A stretch of 64,000 bases of DNA from a virus (taxonomy: Duplodnaviria > Caudoviricetes): positions 149,923 through 213,922 of IMG/VR virus record IMGVR_UViG_3300014204_000112, one strand, 5' to 3'. The notes under the pieces are model-generated. The model had not been told where the DNA came from. It saw only the letters and a list, made by a program, of their open reading frames with translations, and searched no databases. The translations under genes and the position numbers were made by a program. Positions 1,503 through 8,045 of the stretch are shown here, piece by piece (within the stretch, counting starts at the first letter, position 1; every line of letters starts with the position of its first letter).

Positions 1503-1507
1503 ATGTT

Positions 1508-1621
1508 TGGAGGTAAGCGCTAGATTCGAACTAGCCACACAGCAGATTGCTCTGCCTCATTATCCGAAGGACTTCGACCCTATGCATCAAATCGAAGCTC
1601 TTAATTCTGTGATAGCTTACC
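1508..1621 (-). ncRNA. tRNA-like RNA with acceptor stem, T arm and CCA but a non-tRNA body
   Basis: ggtaagc/gcttacc-T-CCA, gctag-ttcgaat-ctagc; internal hairpins cttcgatt/ggtcgaag and gcaga-gcaa-tctgc; no D arm. Confidence 0.65.
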
Positions 1622-1634
1622 GTGTGTCTTCCAG

Positions 1635-1708: not shown

Positions 1709-1717
1709 AAATAAGTT

Positions 1718-1788
1718 GGAGAGAAAATCGGTAGAGTTGTTTGTTGTAAAACCAAAATTTACGAAGTAACTCTTTCCTTTACTACTCC
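1718..1788 (-). ncRNA. Y-RNA (YrlA)-like module, minimal copy
   Basis: tagtaaaggaaagagttacttcg ... ctctaccgattttctc module shared with six other loci. Confidence 0.55.
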
Positions 1789-1791
1789 TAG

Positions 1792-1866
1792 TGGATACAT
1801 GTGGGCTTCGAACCCACGACCTCCTGATTGCAAAACAGGCGCTCTTGCCATCTGAGCTAATGACCC
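1792..1866 (-). tRNA. tRNA-Ala(TGC), bulged acceptor stem
   Basis: G3.U70, loop tt-TGC-aa. Confidence 0.85.
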
Positions 1867-2495
1867 AAATTTCTACCTTTTATCCAACCAGTTGGAATCA
1901 GTTCGTTTTTTTGTATTTTCTTATTTACTGTTCCATTAGTAATCCACTGAGTTCCGTATTGCGAATTATTAGAACCCAGTTGACTGGTTGAATTCTTTAA
2001 TCCTATTACTTTTTTTGTTTTATCAGTATGCTGCTTTCCTAAAAAATTATCAGTTTTTATTTTACCAGTTTCCCATGCATGCTTCATATTTGCACTAGAA
2101 ATATTATGATACTTTTTTCTAAAGGATTCATCGATTTGCATACGATTCGAAAAAGCAGTATTTCCAGCAGTCCCACATTTTTTCATGTGATTAACATTAC
2201 AAAATCCGCCGCTTCCGCCAGGTTTCAAATTCATACACAGTGGATCATCTAGTAACTCAATATTTACGAGTTGAGTTTCTCTATTGATCAAAGATTCTTT
2301 AGTCTCTAGGAACTCCAGAATCTCCTTAGTGTGATTCTCTCTGCCATGCTTAAGAACTGAATATCTTAATTGTTTGCCGCTTCCGAAATATCCATCTTCT
2401 AAATTTGAAGCTGAATGCATTCCGATGTAATATCTACCAGTTACATTGCATGTGATCTTGTAAATGTAAAAGATTGATTTAGGTTTTCTTGGCAT
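1857..2495 (-). CDS. GIY-YIG (Seg-like) homing endonuclease, paralog of 742..1371
   Basis: Near-identical N-terminal YIYKITCNVTGRYYIGMHS. Confidence 0.9.
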   Translation of the reverse strand: MPRKPKSIFYIYKITCNVTGRYYIGMHSASNLEDGYFGSGKQLRYSVLKHGRENHTKEILEFLETKESLINRETQLVNIELLDDPLCMNLKPGGSGGFCNVNHMKKCGTAGNTAFSNRMQIDESFRKKYHNISSANMKHAWETGKIKTDNFLGKQHTDKTKKVIGLKNSTSQLGSNNSQYGTQWITNGTVNKKIQKNELIPTGWIKGRNLGH

Positions 2496-2551
2496 CTGCC
2501 GTACATTATTTTAGATTATTTATCTAAGACAAGGTACAAAAAATGCCGGGG

Positions 2552-2625
2552 TGGAGATTACGAGATTCGAACTCGTGACATCCTGCTTGCAGGGCAGGCG
2601 CTCTGGCCATCTGAGCTAAATCCCC
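2552..2625 (-). tRNA. tRNA-Ala(TGC), second copy (C33)
   Basis: G3.U70, cctgc-ccTGCaa-gcagg. Confidence 0.88.
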
Positions 2626-2627
2626 AT

Positions 2628-2738
2628 AAGTAGAGAAAGTCGGAAGAGATAACAGGCGGTTTCGACACCGCGACTTTTGTTTAAGAGACAAATACTGGAC
2701 TCCCAGCTCGAAGTAACTCTTTCCATTACTACTACTTT
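2628..2738 (-). ncRNA. Y-RNA-like module replacing the acceptor stem of a tRNA-like body (CTT anticodon-like arm)
   Basis: Module at both ends; inside ctgg/ccag, tttgt-ctCTTaa-acaaa, gcggt-gtcgaa-accgc. Confidence 0.6.
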
Positions 2739-2739
2739 G

Positions 2740-2815
2740 TAGGGTAGGTGGGCTATGACCCCACGTGCTCTTAATCCCAAATCAAGCGAGATAAACCAGA
2801 CTCCTCTACTACCCT
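2740..2815 (-). tRNA. tRNA-Pro(TGG), atypical T loop GTCATAG
   Basis: agggtag/ctaccct, cttga-ttTGGga-ttaag. Confidence 0.8.
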
Positions 2816-3459
2816 GTGATGTTATTTTTTAAGAATGTTTTTATTTGAGATTCCATAAGTTTGAAATTTCGGTGTTTCCATTGTATTCTTACAATTTTCC
2901 AACCTTCCTTTTTTATTATGTTATCTCGATTTACATCATATTCTTTTCTTTCCTCATGTTGTTTTCCATCTATTTCTAAAATTACTTTTTTATCAATGAA
3001 TGCAAAATCAGCAAAAAATCTATTTACTTTATGATCTCTTATGTATTTTATTTGTTCTTTATTAAGAAGATCTATTGTAAATTGTTCAGCCCAAGACGGT
3101 TTCTTATTTAATCGTGAAGGATAACCATTATGTCTACCTTCTTTTGCTAATTGTTTTTGTGTATATGAAGAAGAACAATTCCGCGAACAGAATTTATTAG
3201 TATTTGTTATTAACACTTCTTTTTCTTTTCCGCATACTAAACACGACATTATTTTTCTATCAATTAAATGAAGACCTTTTCTATTAGTTGACGTTCCTTT
3301 CAAAAATGATGGTTTTCCTAATAACGATTTACTAACCTTTTCGTTAATTTCTTTCCGTTTTTCTTTTGTACTAAATCCTCTAGAACATTTAGAAGAACAA
3401 AATCTGCCACTTCCATATTGACCATCATGTGGATTACCACAATTTTCGCAAAGTTTCAT
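2809..3459 (-). CDS. Zn-finger + DUF559/Vsr-like endonuclease
   Basis: CxxC/FCSxxCS repeats, FADF...ILEIDGKQH...DxxRD. Confidence 0.85.
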   Translation of the reverse strand: MKLCENCGNPHDGQYGSGRFCSSKCSRGFSTKEKRKEINEKVSKSLLGKPSFLKGTSTNRKGLHLIDRKIMSCLVCGKEKEVLITNTNKFCSRNCSSSYTQKQLAKEGRHNGYPSRLNKKPSWAEQFTIDLLNKEQIKYIRDHKVNRFFADFAFIDKKVILEIDGKQHEERKEYDVNRDNIIKKEGWKIVRIQWKHRNFKLMESQIKTFLKNNITG

Positions 3460-3511
3460 AAGTTCGTTTATTGTTATTTATATTCGAACCTATCCACTTT
3501 TTTGATCCCGG

Positions 3512-3585
3512 TAGGCAGGGGTGGACTTGAACCACCGGCCTCTTCCTTATCAGAGAAGCGCTCTAACCAACTGAGCTACATGCCC
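3512..3585 (-). tRNA. tRNA-Ile(GAT)
   Basis: Canonical cloverleaf. Confidence 0.93.
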
Positions 3586-3590
3586 GTATA

Positions 3591-3713
3591 TGAAGCAACG
3601 ATTTTCCATGTCAGTAGGACGTTGCCAACCTATCCAGCTTACGATCTGGCTCGCCGTTTGACCTTGCGGTCAGGGAAAGCGAGGAACTACGACCCGGTGG
3701 CCTGCCGGTACAT
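3591..3713 (-). ncRNA. Candidate GC-rich multi-hairpin RNA
   Basis: tgacc-GCAA-ggtca inside ctcgc/gcgag, ccag/ctgg, tagg/ccta, ccgg/ccgg. Confidence 0.45.
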
Positions 3714-3715
3714 CG

Positions 3716-3923
3716 AGCCTTTAGACGGATTCGAACCGCCGACTCCTCAACTACACCGTATGGTCTTGATTCGTGTACACTCCTCTTGATTTTCAGGTTC
3801 GTCTACCTCGAATCTCCTGGTTATCCATTCAAGTTGTCTTACGTACGACGCATTGAACCTTTCGCCAAAATTTCCAAGGTCCGGTCCTAATCCGGACGCT
3901 CTAAGCCGCTGAGCTAAGGGGAT
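3716..3923 (-). ncRNA. tRNA-like RNA with D and T arms and a ~130-nt structured insert at the anticodon position
   Basis: tagctcagcggcttagagc D arm, ggcgg-ttcgaat-ccgtc T arm, weak acceptor stem. Confidence 0.6.
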
Positions 3924-3926
3924 ATT

Positions 3927-4520
3927 TTATTTGTTAAAATTTATTTCGATGAATCTTTTTGTTTGAGTATTAGAAATGTTCCAACTTTTTGATAATTTCG
4001 TAATCCAACCGAATTTCTTTTCTATTGAATCATACTCATTTTTTCTTCTATTAAATTCGTCAGTTTTCATTTTTCCAGCTTCGCTTATCAATCTTTTAGA
4101 TTCAGAAGTATGTCGTTTTCCTTTGAACGATGCAGCACCCAATCTTTTTCTTTTTGATAATGGAATTGGCCAACCCTTGTGTTTTCCTTCAATAACGTTT
4201 TTCTTTATTGATTCTCTTCTCTCTGGTCTGCTCCAAGCGTATTCCCAACCACCTTCTCCTCCAAGCTTGAGATTGTAAGTATCTTCTCTGTTAATAAAGA
4301 ATTCATTTACTAGTTCTTTTTCTTTTTCTAGAGCTTCATTTTTCGTTGGAAAAACGTAAAGAATTTCTTTTCTGAAATTTTGAATCCCATATTTTTTAAT
4401 TGCCGCTTTTAACAATTTTCCAGAACCAAAATACTCGTCATTCAAATTTTTAGTTGAATGATAACCGATGTAAATTTTAGAATTTAAGCAATTTGTTATT
4501 TTGTAAATAGCGTAATACAT
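3927..4520 (-). CDS. GIY-YIG homing endonuclease
   Basis: AIYKIT...IYIG...YFGSG, NUMOD3-like. Confidence 0.9.
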   Translation of the reverse strand: MYYAIYKITNCLNSKIYIGYHSTKNLNDEYFGSGKLLKAAIKKYGIQNFRKEILYVFPTKNEALEKEKELVNEFFINREDTYNLKLGGEGGWEYAWSRPERRESIKKNVIEGKHKGWPIPLSKRKRLGAASFKGKRHTSESKRLISEAGKMKTDEFNRRKNEYDSIEKKFGWITKLSKSWNISNTQTKRFIEINFNK

Positions 4521-4565
4521 TAACCGTAGTTTTGATTTTATTTATATGAATCTGCGGTTAATTTG

Positions 4566-4638
4566 AGCTTCCTGTAGGCTACGACCCCACGACCCTCTGA
4601 GTACAAATCAGATGCTCTACCAACTGAGCTAAGGAAGC
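4566..4638 (-). tRNA. tRNA-Thr(TGT), atypical T loop GTCGTAG
   Basis: tctga-ttTGTac-tcaga. Confidence 0.88.
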
Positions 4639-4648
4639 ATTTTTTGAG

Positions 4649-4721
4649 AGCCTCATACCCGATTCAAACGGGTGACCTACTGAGTACGAATCAGTTGCTC
4701 TATCTGCTGAGCTAAAGAGGC
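4649..4721 (-). tRNA. tRNA-Thr(CGT)
   Basis: actga-ttCGTac-tcagt. Confidence 0.9.
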
Positions 4722-4722
4722 A

Positions 4723-5157
4723 TTATAAATCTTTGGCTGTTACGAATTCCTGTGAACTGATTCGGTTAGGACCTCCATCGACGAAGTACGTAAGATTATT
4801 TCCAGTTCGTATTGCCCATAGTATCAACCAATTAAGAACAGCTGAATCCATTTTAGAAACTGCTTCTATAGCTTGATAATGTTCAATCTTGCCAGTTTTC
4901 TTCGTCACTAGAACGTTGGACAAGCTCGGTTTCATCCACATTGGAAAGTCATCATTCGTTAACCATTCGCACTTGTAAGTTATGCAAGGATCGATCGGTC
5001 TATTCTCGTAAATCGTGCAACCTTTTCCGATTTCTACAAAGTGACAAGGTTTTCCTCGATAGAATCTTTCTCCATGAGCTACTCCGTGTAACCAACCTTC
5101 ACAACATTTCGTGCAATCTCCACAAGTTCTTTTTGGAACATTAACAGTTTTTTCCAT
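4723..5157 (-). CDS. Cys-cluster (YkgJ/CxxCxxCC-like) protein
   Basis: CGDCTKCC...C...CTIYENRP..C. Confidence 0.7.
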   Translation of the reverse strand: MEKTVNVPKRTCGDCTKCCEGWLHGVAHGERFYRGKPCHFVEIGKGCTIYENRPIDPCITYKCEWLTNDDFPMWMKPSLSNVLVTKKTGKIEHYQAIEAVSKMDSAVLNWLILWAIRTGNNLTYFVDGGPNRISSQEFVTAKDL

Positions 5158-5204
5158 TCTAGTAGTTTTACTTATTATACAGAAGGACCGTAACAAGTTT
5201 TATT

Positions 5205-5280
5205 TGGCACCCGCGGAAGGACTTGAACCCTCAACCCTCGGTTTTGGAGACCGGTACTCTACCAATTGAGCTACACGGAT
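5205..5280 (-). tRNA. tRNA-Trp(CCA) with encoded CCA end
   Basis: Canonical cloverleaf. Confidence 0.93.
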
Positions 5281-5285
5281 AAGTT

Positions 5286-5394
5286 TGATTTGAGAATGGT
5301 AAAAAGAGTTTTTTACTAAGCAAGGTTTGGTGCTTGGTGTTGGATTCGAACCAACGATAACCATCGATGTATCTCTTTTTTTTGCTACAAATCA
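5286..5394 (-). ncRNA. Y-RNA (YrlA)-like RNA with T arm
   Basis: tagcaaaaaaaagagatacatcg ... gttgg-ttcgaat-ccaac ... ctctttttaccattctc. Confidence 0.55.
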
Positions 5395-5395
5395 G

Positions 5396-5472
5396 CGGGC
5401 CCAAACGGATTCGAACCGTCCTGAATCTTCTGAGTGACAGTCAGACAGCCACACCTAGCAGCCCCTGAGCCC
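5396..5472 (-). tRNA. tRNA-Asp(GTC)
   Basis: tctga-ctGTCac-tcaga, G73. Confidence 0.9.
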
Positions 5473-6000
5473 ATGTTCTTTTTCTTCAATATTCTGTAGT
5501 TTCCAAACTTCAAACTGAATATTTTGTTCAGATAATGCTTTCCATTTACACTTATCGATTTCAGTTTCAAATCCTTTAACTTCAATGTAATAGGTAGATC
5601 CATTAATATTGATGACTTTGAAATCCAATAGATAATTATGAACTTCGTTATCTGGACCTATGTATTGTATTCGGTCATTTGTGTATTCCCAATCTCTTAT
5701 TAAGTAGTTGGCCTTCCAATTATCAAGAATTTTACAAACTCGTAATTCAAAGGATCCCTGTACCTTGATTGATTTATATTGATACCATTTAGAAGTTCCA
5801 CCAGCTACATAATTATGACCTAACCTATAAGCTTGTTTATGAACTTCTGACCAATTTACTTTATTATGGTTTGACCAACTTCCTCGTAATTTACTAGAAC
5901 AGCTAACTGAGCAACATTTTTGATTTCTTTTATTCCAGTGAACTGAGAATTTAGTCAAACAATATTTACAAATTAACTGCACATCTTCGTGTTTTGTCAT
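5455..6000 (-). CDS. Zn-finger + TnsA-like PD-(D/E)XK endonuclease
   Basis: YLLDF...YIEVKG. Confidence 0.8.
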   Translation of the reverse strand: MTKHEDVQLICKYCLTKFSVHWNKRNQKCCSVSCSSKLRGSWSNHNKVNWSEVHKQAYRLGHNYVAGGTSKWYQYKSIKVQGSFELRVCKILDNWKANYLIRDWEYTNDRIQYIGPDNEVHNYLLDFKVININGSTYYIEVKGFETEIDKCKWKALSEQNIQFEVWKLQNIEEKEHGLRGC

Positions 6001-6046
6001 GGCACTTTATTTATACGCGCCTCGTCTTTCGCCGTGAAGTTAAATG

Positions 6047-6122
6047 TGGTAGGCTCGAAGGGACTTGAACCCTTGACTCCCGCCTTAAAAGGGCGGTACT
6101 CTACCAACTGAGTTACGAACCC
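6047..6122 (-). tRNA. tRNA-Lys(TTT) with encoded CCA
   Basis: Canonical cloverleaf. Confidence 0.95.
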
Positions 6123-6538
6123 GTAATCGCTTCTCGAATCTTTTGTTTATGTTCATCCGATTTAGCTTTACCCCTATTTCCTTTACCACCGTTTGACGAA
6201 CGTTTTCTCAAAAGTTCTTTAGCTTTAACTTTGCCATGTTTATCAATCATTCGTTGATAGATTGATGGCGCTCCATTTTCGTATTCGTCAATTTTATTAT
6301 CTGACTTAGTCCCCCAATACATGTGATTAGGATTACTACATTTTGGATTGTTACAGCCGTGGCAAACAACGATGCTATTTCCATTGACTGGCATTGTCGT
6401 ATCGTAGTGGTATGCAACCAGAGCAACTAACTGAGTAGAGTATTTCAATCCACGTTCGTGGCAAGGTTCCTCTAACTTTAGCATTTGTTTTCTTTGTGCT
6501 CTAGTGTTTTCGATTACAAAATTTTCAACTGATTTCAT
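6113..6538 (-). CDS. HNH-type homing endonuclease with NUMOD3-like tail
   Basis: VCHGCNNPKCSNPNHMYWGT...N, KSDEHKQKI. Confidence 0.8.
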   Translation of the reverse strand: MKSVENFVIENTRAQRKQMLKLEEPCHERGLKYSTQLVALVAYHYDTTMPVNGNSIVVCHGCNNPKCSNPNHMYWGTKSDNKIDEYENGAPSIYQRMIDKHGKVKAKELLRKRSSNGGKGNRGKAKSDEHKQKIREAITGS

Positions 6539-6619
6539 GTTTTAGTTTATATATCTAGAGCAATCTCTTAAAAGTACAGCACTCTAGCGATAATTGGTCT
6601 TTGTTCAATAAATAACGGC

Positions 6620-6817
6620 ATGGTTAATGAACGTTATTTTATGTGCTCCAAGTGCGGAACAGTCGTCGACTCGTTCGGCAAAGCAGTGGATGCAAAGAAA
6701 CTAGAAATAGACATAAAATCTTTAAGAAGTACCACTTGTAAGATTTGTCTTGACTATCAAATCTGGGAAAACAATACTTACTTTTCGAGGACTGATCGGG
6801 ACTCGAACCCGAGATAA
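6620..6817 (+). CDS. Small Zn-finger protein antisense to the array
   Basis: CSKC...CKIC, preceded by aataaata box. Confidence 0.45.
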   Translation: MVNERYFMCSKCGTVVDSFGKAVDAKKLEIDIKSLRSTTCKICLDYQIWENNTYFSRTDRDSNPR

Positions 6818-6857
6818 CCAACTGGATGGGGCGCGCACCAACCACCACGTTCAGCCC
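6788..6857 (-). pseudogene. Degenerate tRNA-like gene (G3.U70, collapsed anticodon arm)
   Basis: gggctga/tcagtcc, tcggg-ttcgagt-cccga, poor anticodon stem. Confidence 0.55.
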
Positions 6858-6864
6858 ATAAATA

Positions 6865-7003
6865 CAAACAAGAACACTGGATAGAGGAATTTGATTGATG
6901 TCAATTTTACAGATTGATGACTTAGACCGCTCGTCCAACGACCCGAAAGCCGTACGGGATTCGAACCCGTGATCGAAGTAACTCTATGACCTTACTATGC
7001 TTG
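6865..7003 (-). ncRNA. Y-RNA-like RNA with circularly permuted tRNA (T arm, closed acceptor, D arm, GTA anticodon arm)
   Basis: tagtaaggtcatagagttacttcg-T arm-acggc tttcg ggtcgt-D arm-tcaat ctGTAaa attga-ctctat. Confidence 0.65.
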
Positions 7004-7451
7004 ATTTCTTATTTACAATGTTTTTTGCTCCGAACGTATGTGTTTGTGAATGACAGTTTGGACACAAAATTCTCAGATTTTGAAGTCTGTGATTTCGGTT
7101 ATTTCCGTCAATATGATCGACTTGTAATGATAAAGGTAGACCGTTCCATTCTGCTGGAGTTCCGCATTCTTCACATCGATCCTCTTTATAACCTTCCAGT
7201 ATCAATCGTCTTTTTAATTTCGATGTCGGATATTCTGGGTGTTTTCCTTCAAGAATGTCTAGCAATTTGAATGCTACTCCTCCGGTTCTTTTCATTTTTC
7301 GTAACTTGACTTCAATTTGTATTCCTAACAAATTGCAATATTTGGTTAGGGTTACTCTACTGATTCCAGTTACTTCTGAAAGTTCCAAAACAGAGCTAAC
7401 GTTCTTGGCATTTTCATTGATTTTGTCTACGATTTCTTGGTTTAGCCGCAT
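6984..7451 (-). CDS. HNH homing endonuclease (start reassigned to MRLNQ)
   Basis: CEECG...LQVDHIDGN..N....NLRILCPNCH; late box at 7463-7470 in ccgcat/atgcgg hairpin. Confidence 0.88.
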   Translation of the reverse strand: MRLNQEIVDKINENAKNVSSVLELSEVTGISRVTLTKYCNLLGIQIEVKLRKMKRTGGVAFKLLDILEGKHPEYPTSKLKRRLILEGYKEDRCEECGTPAEWNGLPLSLQVDHIDGNNRNHRLQNLRILCPNCHSQTHTFGAKNIVNKKSSIVRS

Positions 7452-7504
7452 TGCTTTATTTTTATTTATATGCGGTCTGTTTACCAAAACCTCTGTAAAC
7501 TACG

Positions 7505-7586
7505 TGGGATGTGATGGAGTCGAACCACCCGAGCTTTCACAACAGATTTACAGTCTGCCCCGCTACCATCTACGGAATAACATCCC
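7505..7586 (-). tRNA. tRNA-Tyr(GTA)
   Basis: Type II cloverleaf. Confidence 0.93.
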
Positions 7587-7628
7587 ATTGTCCCTCTATT
7601 TTTGATTTCCTGGAGGGTGCGGAAGGTG

Positions 7629-7746
7629 CGGGAAGGTGAGATTCGAACTCACGAGATCAAATTGACAGTTTGATTGTTTCCGATGCAACTCTTATCATTG
7701 CTATCCTTTCAGAAGAAATTCGACAGAGCGTTTTGAATTTCTTCCC
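7629..7746 (-). ncRNA. tRNA/Y-RNA hybrid, module replaces D arm (GTC arm, G73)
   Basis: gggaag/cttccc, atcaaa-ctGTCaa-tttgat, T arm. Confidence 0.65.
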
Positions 7747-7786
7747 CGAGTGTACCTGTTTTTACTGTACAGGAGAACAGTGTAGG

Positions 7787-7904
7787 AGGGGGAAGTTGGA
7801 TTTGAACCAACGATCAAATTTTCAAGGTTTGATTGTGCCGATGAAACTCTTATCATTGCTATCATCGCTGAAGAAAGTCGACAGAGTCGTTTTTACTTTC
7901 CCCC
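7787..7904 (-). ncRNA. tRNA/Y-RNA hybrid, module replaces D arm (TGA/TTG-like arm)
   Basis: gggggaa/ttccccc, T arm gttgg-ttcaaat-ccaac. Confidence 0.65.
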
Positions 7905-7920
7905 ATGTTTTATTAAGTAT

Positions 7921-8045
7921 TGGCGAGGGAGGCTGGATTTGAACCAACATAATCAAGTTTTCAATTTGACTGTTACCGATGCAACTCTATTCATTGCTAT
8001 CATTGCTGAAGAAAGTCGGATAGAGCATTGTGTATATGCTCCCTC
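7921..8045 (-). ncRNA. tRNA/Y-RNA hybrid with CCA, module replaces D arm (GAA-like arm)
   Basis: gagggag/ctccctc-G-CCA, T arm. Confidence 0.65.

Follow-up and report, generated by a model that had tools for sequence, protein, structure and literature searches.

Ten handle-bearing RNAs in the tRNA array of an uncultured phage as probable partners of its own diverged Ro60

What are the stem-like modules that recur between the tRNA genes of an uncultured phage, joined at different places to bodies that resemble tRNAs? The question is raised by a stretch of 64,000 nucleotides (the window) that forms the right-hand 64 kb (positions 149,923 to 213,922) of the 213.9-kb IMG/VR record IMGVR_UViG_3300014204_000112, which is estimated to be 83% complete and for which no close relative was found among the deposited phages. 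An initial annotation of the window had described seven copies of a bipartite module (at 1718, 2628, 5286, 6865, 7629, 7787 and 7921) and had proposed that a stem of the kind bound by Ro60 in Y RNAs is grafted onto different arms of the tRNA cloverleaf, to give a set that is made together with the tRNAs. All seven copies are present, and the proposal is supported by a Ro60 gene within the same array, by covariation of the helices, by the co-occurrence of both features in other phages and by the close spacing to the tRNA genes. We consider it probable that the modules, of which the genome has ten, define partner RNAs of the phage's own Ro60, which would make them diverged and greatly expanded relatives of the bacterial Y RNAs YrlA and YrlB.

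The window contains 18 tRNA genes between positions 113 and 9216, every one on the minus strand, and the array extends a further 16 kb to the left of the window, to a total of 41 tRNA calls on the same strand. Open reading frames (ORFs) for GIY-YIG and HNH homing endonucleases are scattered among the tRNAs. The modules are sensible only on the minus (tRNA) strand, and a plus-strand reading was rejected. Their 12-nt core (AGAG-W-T-N-C-W-TCG) occurs eight times on the minus strand and not at all on the plus strand of the 214-kb genome, where shuffled sequences lead to an expectation of 0.33 copies, and looser searches added two copies with a compensated inner helix (AGGG/CCCT and ACAG/CTGT). The ten resulting units, seven in the window and three to the left of it, all lie in one 18-kb stretch and were numbered Y1 to Y10 by order of transcription. 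Spacers to the neighbouring tRNAs, on whose strand they are encoded, measure 0-10 nt: Y7 starts 2 nt past tRNA-Ala and ends 9 nt ahead of tRNA-Ile, tRNA-Pro and tRNA-Ala flank Y6, tRNA-Asp and tRNA-Trp flank Y5 (spacers of 0-8 nt), and Y3 abuts tRNA-Tyr (7504-7586). Such spacers leave no room for separate promoters and therefore co-transcription with the tRNAs is the simplest reading.

The part that is common to the units, which we call the handle, consists of an outer helix (s1), an invariant asymmetric loop and an inner helix (H2), followed by UUACUUCG and an A-rich return strand. The 5' part is composed of a few variable bases, UAGYAA, 4-7 variable bases, ARRG and UU(A/G/U)C(U/A)UCG; in the 3' part, the complement of ARRG is separated by a few variable bases from a short purine-A-rich bulge, after which come UU(U)CU and bases complementary to the first variable ones. 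The bases between the helices do not vary (UAGYAA opposite (R)AAYN and then UU(U)CU), all ten units have UAGYAA on the 5' strand and the UUACUUCG that follows H2 is near-invariant. The 3' strand has a C-R-A-N bulge, which is CGA in Y1, Y2, Y3, Y6 and Y7 and CAA, CCA or other elsewhere. The remainder of each unit (the head) is always joined on the H2 side, via UUACUUCG and the A-rich strand, and the s1 side holds either the RNA ends or a tetraloop, so that the handle has a constant inside and a constant outside. The units thus possess the stem with a conserved internal loop that is general to Y RNAs; it is formed by the RNA ends, or capped by a GNRA tetraloop in Y1-Y3. No Rfam family covers the handle. 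Known motifs were compared by eye and rejected: the sarcin-ricin/loop E motif (AGUA/GAA) and the kink-turn for the internal loop, because the lengths of the flanking strands do not match, and a hammerhead-like CUGA..GAAA for the caps.

The handle was then compared over about 140 contigs, namely 28 phage contigs that encode Ro60 relatives and some 110 that contain the 5'-arm pattern, and 196 distinct helices were obtained by pairing the two arms on the motif alone. Positions 1-3 of s1 are paired in 94-96% of these helices, as compared to 40-73% when the 3' arms are shuffled among the units, and all four Watson-Crick pair types are present at positions 2-4. H2 measures 7-9 bp and its last four pairs come in more than 20 variants (including AGAG/CUCU, AGGG/CCCU, AAAG/CUUU, AAGG/CCUU and ACAG/CUGU). 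RNAalifold, which is blind to the pairing by motif, recovered both s1 and H2, from 36 bare-hairpin units as well as from 23 units of greater length. In a 23-member alignment of units with the YrlA topology (see below), compensatory changes were found in 24 of the 28 pairs predicted by RNAalifold, and 94.7% of the cells are paired as compared to 64.8% in shuffles (0 of 500 reach the observed value) and 38-50% in slid registers. An invariant asymmetric loop between helices that covary freely is what usually marks a specific site of protein binding.

A covariance model, which had been proposed as a check, was built from 36 aligned bare hairpins (35 from other phage contigs and Y7 itself) and run with filters off on 82 kb, made up of the window and the 18 kb left of it. 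It recovered the seven units with an open handle, at 60.9-27.2 bits (E 1e-9 to 7e-3), and nothing else in these 82 kb; a scan of the whole genome gave nothing outside the array. The top match, Y7, is a training sequence and hence six of the matches are independent. The capped units Y1-Y3 are circular permutations of the model, for which a match is not expected.

The heads sort into classes that recur in other phages, and the handle is attached to them at four different points: the acceptor ends, the D-arm position, the D/anticodon junction and the variable-loop position. All ten units are encoded on the minus strand. Y1 (7921..8045) is tRNA-like, with an acceptor stem GAGGGAG/CTCCCTC that is followed by G and CCA (the unit ends in GCCA); its handle hairpin (8025-7977), with a GCAA cap, takes the place of the D arm and is followed by an anticodon-like arm with a 9-nt loop and by a T arm. 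Y2 (7785..7904; acceptor GGGGGAA/TTCCCCC; handle hairpin 7886-7839, GCGA cap) and Y3 (7625..7747; acceptor GGGGAAG/CTTCCCG with an imperfect first pair; anticodon loop CTGTCAA; handle hairpin 7728-7681, GAAA cap) belong to the same class, and Y3 gives a weak match to the Rfam tRNA model (7633-7693, 23.9 bits). This GNRA-capped class with free acceptor ends comprises 13 distinct units, some in a clade with a Ro60 that is only 37% identical. Its acceptor stems covary (GGGGAAG/CUUCCCC, GGCCGA/UCGGCC, GGCGAG/CUCGCC, GAGGGAG/CUCCCUC) and several members encode NCCA. An encoded CCA as a mark peculiar to Y1 was rejected, since about 11 of the 41 true tRNA genes encode it as well.

The other units in the window have an open handle. 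In Y4 (6865..7003; 32.7 bits, E 6e-4 with the covariance model) it occupies the variable-loop position in a permuted tRNA, whose T arm is followed by an acceptor stem closed by a loop, a class-II D arm and a GTA anticodon arm (loop CTGTAAA), and orthologues occur in the related contigs L003, L005, L009, L013 and L015-L018. Y5 (5287..5393; 43.4 bits, E 4e-6) has the handle around a T arm and one closed 7-bp stem, is separated from tRNA-Asp and tRNA-Trp by 0 and about 6 nt, and has orthologues at L003:1191 and L006:102. In Y6 (2628..2737; 50.4 bits, E 2e-7) the handle stands instead of the acceptor stem of a body with a D-like hairpin, an anticodon arm (loop CTCTTAA, kept in the orthologues of L003 and L005) and a T-like arm. 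Y7 (1716..1790; 60.9 bits, as a member of the training set) is a bare handle with a closing loop of 25 nt, and represents a bare-hairpin class of 40 distinct units, of which the 36 mentioned above were aligned. The forms that had been read from the letters of the window thus hold for all seven copies: a bare stem near 1718, a T-arm form at 5286 (to which the closed stem is to be added), a CTT-arm body with a replaced acceptor stem at 2628, a variable-arm graft on a permuted GTA-arm tRNA with a closed acceptor at 6865, and three tandem copies with free acceptors in which the handle replaces the D arm.

Three further units lie to the left of the window. Y8 (genome 145394-145549; core ACAG/CTGT) has the handle at the D/anticodon junction of a permuted tRNA, in which a short anticodon-like hairpin is followed by a T arm, a loop-closed acceptor stem and a D arm, the order that is known from YrlA. 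The order of T arm, acceptor stem and D arm is shared by Y8 and 22 orthologues, in which all three arms covary; no copy of Y8 was found in cultured phages with blastn. In Y9 (genome 140535-140655; core AGGG/CCCT) the handle replaces the acceptor stem; scored without acceptor ends, the remaining D, anticodon and T arms give 45.8 bits under the Rfam tRNA model. In Y10 (genome 140129-140254) the two strands of the handle form the leader and the trailer of a complete cloverleaf, which ARAGORN calls tRNA-Pro(TGG), and the corresponding heads of relatives have TTG, CAG, TAG or TCA loops. The two heads that score as tRNAs, Y9 and Y10, are both enclosed by a handle, and Y10 has the only head of the ten that is called by ARAGORN; none of the seven units in the window is called by this program or reaches the Rfam tRNA threshold. 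Units and tRNAs alike show a mosaic of 75-100% identity between close relatives (whose Ro60s are 99% identical), and for this reason we do not claim that the heads evolve faster than the tRNAs. As a separate observation, the anticodon-like loops of the Y10-type heads (G000, L005, L012, L013, L017 and L018) vary at positions 34-35 and mostly keep G36 and G37. This G36-G37 dinucleotide is the feature that is read by the m1G37 methyltransferase TrmD.

The absence of a Ro60 gene from the window, which had been pointed out before, holds. The proposed search of the remainder of the genome was performed with the Pfam TROVE model over the whole record and did recover one: an ORF of 542 aa with a TROVE plus a vWA (von Willebrand factor A) domain (genome 141381-143009, minus strand), which is located 6.9 kb left of the window edge, within the tRNA array and on the tRNA strand. 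Taken alone, the sequence scores 22.1 bits against Pfam TROVE, which is borderline (cut-off 23); the models VWA_2 and vWA_Ro60 also match, as does PHROG 850 (4e-30), and the alignment to Ro60 from Thermus phage phiLo covers the full length of the protein. With a profile made of 12 homologues, phiLo Ro60 (3e-20), Xenopus Ro60 (6e-10), human RO60 and Deinococcus Rsr (8e-7) were retrieved and five Ro60 structures were matched. The best 13 Foldseek matches of an AlphaFold2 (AF2) model (predicted local distance difference test, pLDDT, 76) are all Ro60s, aligned over the full length with template-modelling (TM) scores of 0.50-0.64 (query-normalised). The residues of the adhesion site that depends on metal ions (MIDAS; D370, S372, S374, T443 and D467, i.e. 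DxSxS, T and D) are invariant in the 12 homologues. Judged by the matches of profile, predicted fold, vWA domain and PHROG together with the invariant MIDAS, the protein is a diverged but genuine Ro60. A pattern scan of genome contigs confirmed no cellular relatives of this Ro60 clade.

Units and Ro60 gene are genomically associated. Y9 and Y10 directly follow the Ro60 gene downstream, at a distance of 0.7-1.3 kb, and the first unit that lies upstream of it is Y8; in most relatives a Y8-type unit is found about 200-650 nt upstream of the Ro60 start. We determined the association from both sides. Starting from the protein, at least one full handle was found at 24 of the 28 Ro60 loci for which flanks were fetched, and of the four others one is a duplicate and three are fragments that measure 4-5 kb. 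The 68 distinct handles at Ro60 loci are all on the Ro60 strand; the units therefore share with YrlA-type RNAs that they are encoded beside Ro60/Rsr on the same strand. Starting from the RNA, IMG/VR was scanned for the 5'-arm pattern, 28 matched records of at least 30 kb were searched for Ro60 and the 3' arm was checked. Among the records that are at least 90% complete, Ro60 is present in five of five with a full handle versus none of four with a chance match to the 5' arm (Fisher p = 0.008), and the nine records with a handle and no Ro60 are all fragments (7-26% complete). The pairing extends to the 635-kb phage LR745206, in which a handle (UAGUAA, helix, AUACUUCG) is located 0.5 kb upstream of a Ro60 that is 31.5% identical.

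How do the units compare to the Y RNAs that are already known? YrlA RNAs adjoin Ro60 in more than 250 bacteria and phages and consist of a Ro60-binding stem and a tRNA-like domain with a T arm, a closed acceptor stem and a D arm (Chen et al. 2014, PMC4201824). This domain folds like a tRNA and has a conserved UA kink, while an anticodon loop and a CCA end are missing (Wang et al. 2018, bioRxiv 10.1101/312249). The likeness of the units to YrlA is threefold: i) they lie beside Ro60/Rsr on the same strand, with a terminal stem that has an asymmetric internal loop and bears a tRNA-like domain; ii) Y8 has T arm, loop-closed acceptor stem and D arm in the order of YrlA, behind an added short anticodon-like hairpin; and iii) the sizes of the helices and the loop of the handle parallel the YrlA consensus (a 6-bp helix, a 5-nt/8-nt loop, a 7-bp helix, CUA and the tRNA-like domain), with UUA here for CUA. 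The conserved UA after H2 corresponds to the kink-forming UA of YrlA (bioRxiv 10.1101/312249), and the 3' loop reads AAYNUUCU here where the YrlA consensus has AaAcUuGu. The differences concern the sequence of the handle (UAGYAA / AAYN-UUCU / UUACUUCG, with no CGAA on the 5' strand), the number of genes (ten per genome versus one or two), its attachment at four points of the tRNA, and the heads, since YrlA (10.1101/312249) has none of the anticodon arms, whole cloverleaves and free NCCA acceptor ends that occur here. The YrlA head order, with no anticodon loop and no free CCA, is approached by the Y8 type, which adds a short anticodon-like hairpin before the T arm, and by Y4, which adds an anticodon arm; it is absent from Y1-Y3 (free acceptor end), Y5, Y6, Y7, Y9 and Y10. 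The Rfam YrlA model aligns Y8 over the tRNA-like domain (31.9 bits, E 1.6e-5 in a 191-nt search) and Y4 over the full model (19.4 bits, the best in the window), and leaves the other eight units unmatched at the E-value threshold.

Other precedents are found among the remaining Y RNAs. Each characterised bacterium has a second, hairpin-shaped Y RNA (PMC4201824), and Y7 and the 39 further bare units resemble these YrlB/Yrn2-type RNAs in being a Ro60-type stem with a small loop; the sequences are unrelated, and the loops are A-rich here and pyrimidine-rich there. For Y RNAs that end like a tRNA, as Y1-Y3 do, a precedent exists in YrlA of M. smegmatis, to which CCA is added and which RNase P cleaves; for co-transcription with tRNAs there is Yrn2 of D. 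radiodurans, which shares a polycistronic precursor with a tRNA (PMC4201824). M. smegmatis YrlA and D. radiodurans Yrn1 and Yrn2 are, however, single RNAs of cellular genomes, and in none of them does a handle replace the D arm. Among phages, the closest solved relative is the Ro60 of phiLo (PDB 9KOP, 9L5Y; the 3e-20 hit of the profile and the top fold match), which binds stem-bulge-stem RNAs encoded beside its gene and forms complexes with the polynucleotide phosphorylase (PNPase) of its host (PMC12135203). It differs in that its partners are two simple hairpins with a CGAA bulge, Yrl1 and Yrl2, for which no tRNA-like heads are described, whereas here there are ten RNAs, with tRNA heads and inside a tRNA operon. 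In phage Bas63 a Ro60-like gene, gp130, is located upstream of the tRNA genes and its deletion sensitises the phage to the ppl defence; its authors noted that some of the 'tRNAs' may be Y RNAs (bioRxiv 10.1101/2024.10.10.617714). We liken this locus to the present one by description only, as a Ro60-like gene that adjoins a tRNA array; the RNAs were left undefined there. A side observation concerns the crAss-like phage csAssE-Sib (L147, OR575929.1), where genes for tRNA-Tyr and tRNA-Lys (7630-7848) directly precede an annotated 'Ro sixty-related protein'. The anticodon types are those of the Y4 (GTA) and Y6 (CTT) heads, and the scan found no handle of the present type at this locus. Modules with a tRNA shape and a role outside decoding are also known from transfer-messenger RNA (tmRNA), the tRNA-like structure of turnip yellow mosaic virus (TYMV) and the tRNA associated with band-7 (b7a-tRNA) of RtcB operons, the last of which is tied to RNA-repair operons (cited in 10.1101/312249); these have no Ro60-type handle and do not form a modular family with many members.

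That Y RNAs adjoin Ro60 in bacteria and phages, and that phage Ro60s have Y-RNA-like partners, was known already (PMC4201824, PMC12135203). In the papers that were consulted we found no account of ten handle-tagged RNAs in one genome, nor a description of a handle at four positions of the tRNA or of heads that bear anticodon arms and a free NCCA end. As the score with the Rfam YrlA model remains below threshold, the units are to be regarded as a new variant and not as YrlA. We infer by analogy that they work like Y RNAs without being members of RF02553.

Several points weigh against the view that the units are partners of the phage's Ro60. The search with the Rfam YrlA model (RF02553) that had been proposed did not reach the gathering score of 69 bits in the window or in the piece of the genome left of it (L002), the maximum being 31.9, and the handle differs from YrlA in sequence; the model likewise gives no match at gathering score in the TROVE region of CcrColossus, so that its failure here says little. 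The 5'-strand CGAA by which Y RNAs are recognised, and which marks phiLo Yrl1/2 and the metazoan Y RNAs (GGUCCGA; PMC12135203), is missing, and the C-R-A-N bulge is on the opposite strand only. The positive records of the association test are not independent in phylogeny, as they come from related phages that have both features in their tRNA arrays; this amounts to co-inheritance over a deep clade in few independent events, and linkage alone does not prove a physical partnership. RtcB, another gene that had been proposed as a target, was searched in the genome together with a CCA-adding enzyme and neither was found. No conserved effector gene accompanies the handle and Ro60, and both the units and the Ro60 of this uncultured phage are known from sequence alone.

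Three other explanations were weighed. The strongest of them, which we nevertheless consider unlikely, sees in the handle a self-sufficient element of processing or stability (a leader-trailer clamp for RNase III, E or P, or a shield against exonucleases) or the site of another protein, with its closeness to Ro60 reflecting no more than shared residence in the array. It accounts for units that are wedged between tRNAs with spacers of 0-10 nt, several of which end in U runs, and for the Y10 type, in which a complete cloverleaf literally has the strands of the handle as its leader and trailer and acceptor base 1 is the last base of the conserved CUUCG; the binding of Ro60 to the handle is, moreover, inferred. 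A clamp of leader and trailer does not, however, fit the capped handles, which stand inside the tRNA-like body with a tetraloop at their end, and the combination of an invariant asymmetric loop and freely covarying helices marks a specific protein site. The handle furthermore follows Ro60 down to 31.5% identity and into a different kind of phage, and no other protein is conserved beside it.

Decidedly improbable is the second alternative, in which the units would mature into working tRNAs from permuted, split or insert-bearing genes and the handle would be removed or rearranged on the way. Four of the ten, having an acceptor stem that is closed or absent (Y4, Y5, Y8) or no head at all (Y7), cannot be charged, and the units contain no bulge-helix-bulge or intron-like splice signals. 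The calls that would favour precursors are those of ARAGORN for the Y10 head, tRNA-Pro(TGG), and for heads in relatives (Gln, Leu, Lys or Phe), next to the 45.8 bits of the Y9 head and the free acceptor stems of the capped class, some with NCCA; against this, the array already has standard tRNAs for Pro(TGG), Tyr, Lys(CTT), Asp and Cys, and the most conserved part of the units is the handle and not the head. The last alternative, functionless decay of tRNA pseudogenes together with a spacer hairpin repeat spread by homing endonucleases, would suit a mosaic array that is rich in GIY-YIG/HNH genes and in which tRNAs and units are 75-100% identical between phages with 99% identical Ro60s, but is made very unlikely by the covariation already and hardly deserves credence given compensatory changes in every helix, eight architectural classes that are conserved across phages with Ro60s of 37-99% identity, and the confinement of all copies to one strand and one region.

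If the units are indeed the partners of the phage's Ro60, they would be transcribed within the polycistronic tRNA precursor and released by the enzymes that act on the flanking tRNAs: RNase P would process the 5' end of the following tRNA, and 3' trimming the end of the preceding one. The handle could then dock on the outer surface of the Ro60 ring, in the way of the bulged stem of Y RNAs. By analogy with known Y RNAs, of which a second factor is for example PNPase in Deinococcus, Salmonella and phiLo (PMC4201824, PMC12135203), the head would engage such a factor once the handle is on Ro60. The heads would present tRNA shapes to tRNA-binding factors; they may tether these factors or the host PNPase to Ro60, or may soak up host defence nucleases that target tRNAs during infection. 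A role in a conflict over tRNAs is plausible, with the units as decoys or capture modules for host factors that target tRNAs, or as guides in the clearing of damaged tRNA. A more daring version, which we put forward as a doubtful possibility, is that one Ro60 ring and ten interchangeable adaptors, which hold a tRNA body at four different points and together display every face of a tRNA, form a counter-defence platform that guards the phage's 41 tRNAs. The faces displayed would be the anticodon loop, the acceptor/CCA end and the elbow; the platform might capture or decoy anticodon nucleases or enzymes by which the CCA end is modified, or might hand fragments of damaged tRNA over to PNPase. The loops that recur in the heads, of the Tyr type (GTA), of the Lys type (CTT) and with G36-G37, might mirror the tRNAs that are attacked.

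The units, if they act as Y RNAs, represent a natural experiment on the tRNA-like domain of these RNAs, the purpose of which has been in question since 2014: the handle is constant, and the tRNA part is swapped, permuted, truncated or omitted. This repertoire is conserved across phages in which Ro60 has diverged to 37% identity and would offer, ready for use, a set of natural variants with which the factors recruited by the tRNA module could be sought. The repertoire also brings Ro60/Y-RNA particles into the translation toolkit of a phage, next to 41 tRNAs, a release-factor-like gene and a cRec/Nudix pair (both described below), which points to a role in the conflict between host and phage over tRNAs. 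The effect of Bas63 gp130 against ppl is compatible with such a role and is the sole functional datum for a phage Ro60-like protein beside tRNA genes. A covariance model of the handle would furthermore enable annotators to find RNAs that tRNA finders and Rfam either miss or call tRNAs.

The protein-coding neighbours were inspected for RNA repair and for a partner of the handle and Ro60. One ORF with an RNA_ligase domain is located 45 kb away. No match to a T4-type Rnl1 was found in the genome, which is uninformative as the control genomes gave none either. Downstream, a stand-alone cRec domain protein (L002 7059-7400, minus strand; PF20274, 67 bits, 2e-18) and a Nudix protein (L002 6370-6807, minus strand) are encoded together, two genes downstream of the cluster of Ro60, Y9 and Y10. 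In the literature, cRec, with Nudix, is linked to the processing of 2',3'-cyclic phosphate or ADP-ribose (Iyer et al. 2021, PMC7824862). The cRec, Nudix and AAA genes and the small ORFs downstream were rejected as a conserved partner because they are shared with the two closest relatives only, and for the same reason the cRec/Nudix pair is weak context. A release-factor-like gene (L002 7395-8094, genome about 139394-140093, minus strand) starts immediately after Y10. It begins at release-factor domain 2 (domain 1 is missing), contains two early in-frame UGA codons and loses the frame before the GGQ region; an identity as PrfH was rejected, as NCBIfam places the gene with RF1 (69 bits).

The array contains further tRNA-like elements, all on the minus strand. 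Between tRNA-Glu and tRNA-Ile lies a 131-nt element with no handle (window 1503-1633). Its acceptor stem, GGUAAGC/GCUUACC, precedes U-CCA; besides a T arm of normal form it has two hairpins, a small one with loop AGCAAU and a long extra one. Neither ARAGORN nor Rfam calls the element, and its fold z-score is -2.2. A 71-nt tRNA-like RNA right after Y4 (window 6783-6858) has a good acceptor stem (GGGCUGA/UCAGUCC) and T arm, but its anticodon arm is shortened, with a loop of 6 nt; no tRNA is called here, and Rfam gives a weak mascRNA-like match. A 340-nt gap in the array that contains no ORF (window 3586-3926) starts like a tRNA, with a D arm and an anticodon stem (loop AUUAGGA), about 150 nt precede the T arm, and the matching acceptor strand is absent; there is no Rfam match to this gap, and its fold is no better than that of shuffles. 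Just past the Ro60 stop codon and terminator (L002 9225-9345, genome about 141224-141344), a stretch of some 105 nt is closed by GGAGU/ACUCC and has a T-loop-like hairpin (GCUAGUUCAAUUCUGGC; fold z-score -0.65), which could be another Ro60-linked RNA with no handle. At the far end of the array (L002 2514-2587), ARAGORN calls a tRNA with anticodon CTA, of the amber-suppressor type and labelled 'Pyl', which scores 58.8 bits with the Rfam tRNA model.

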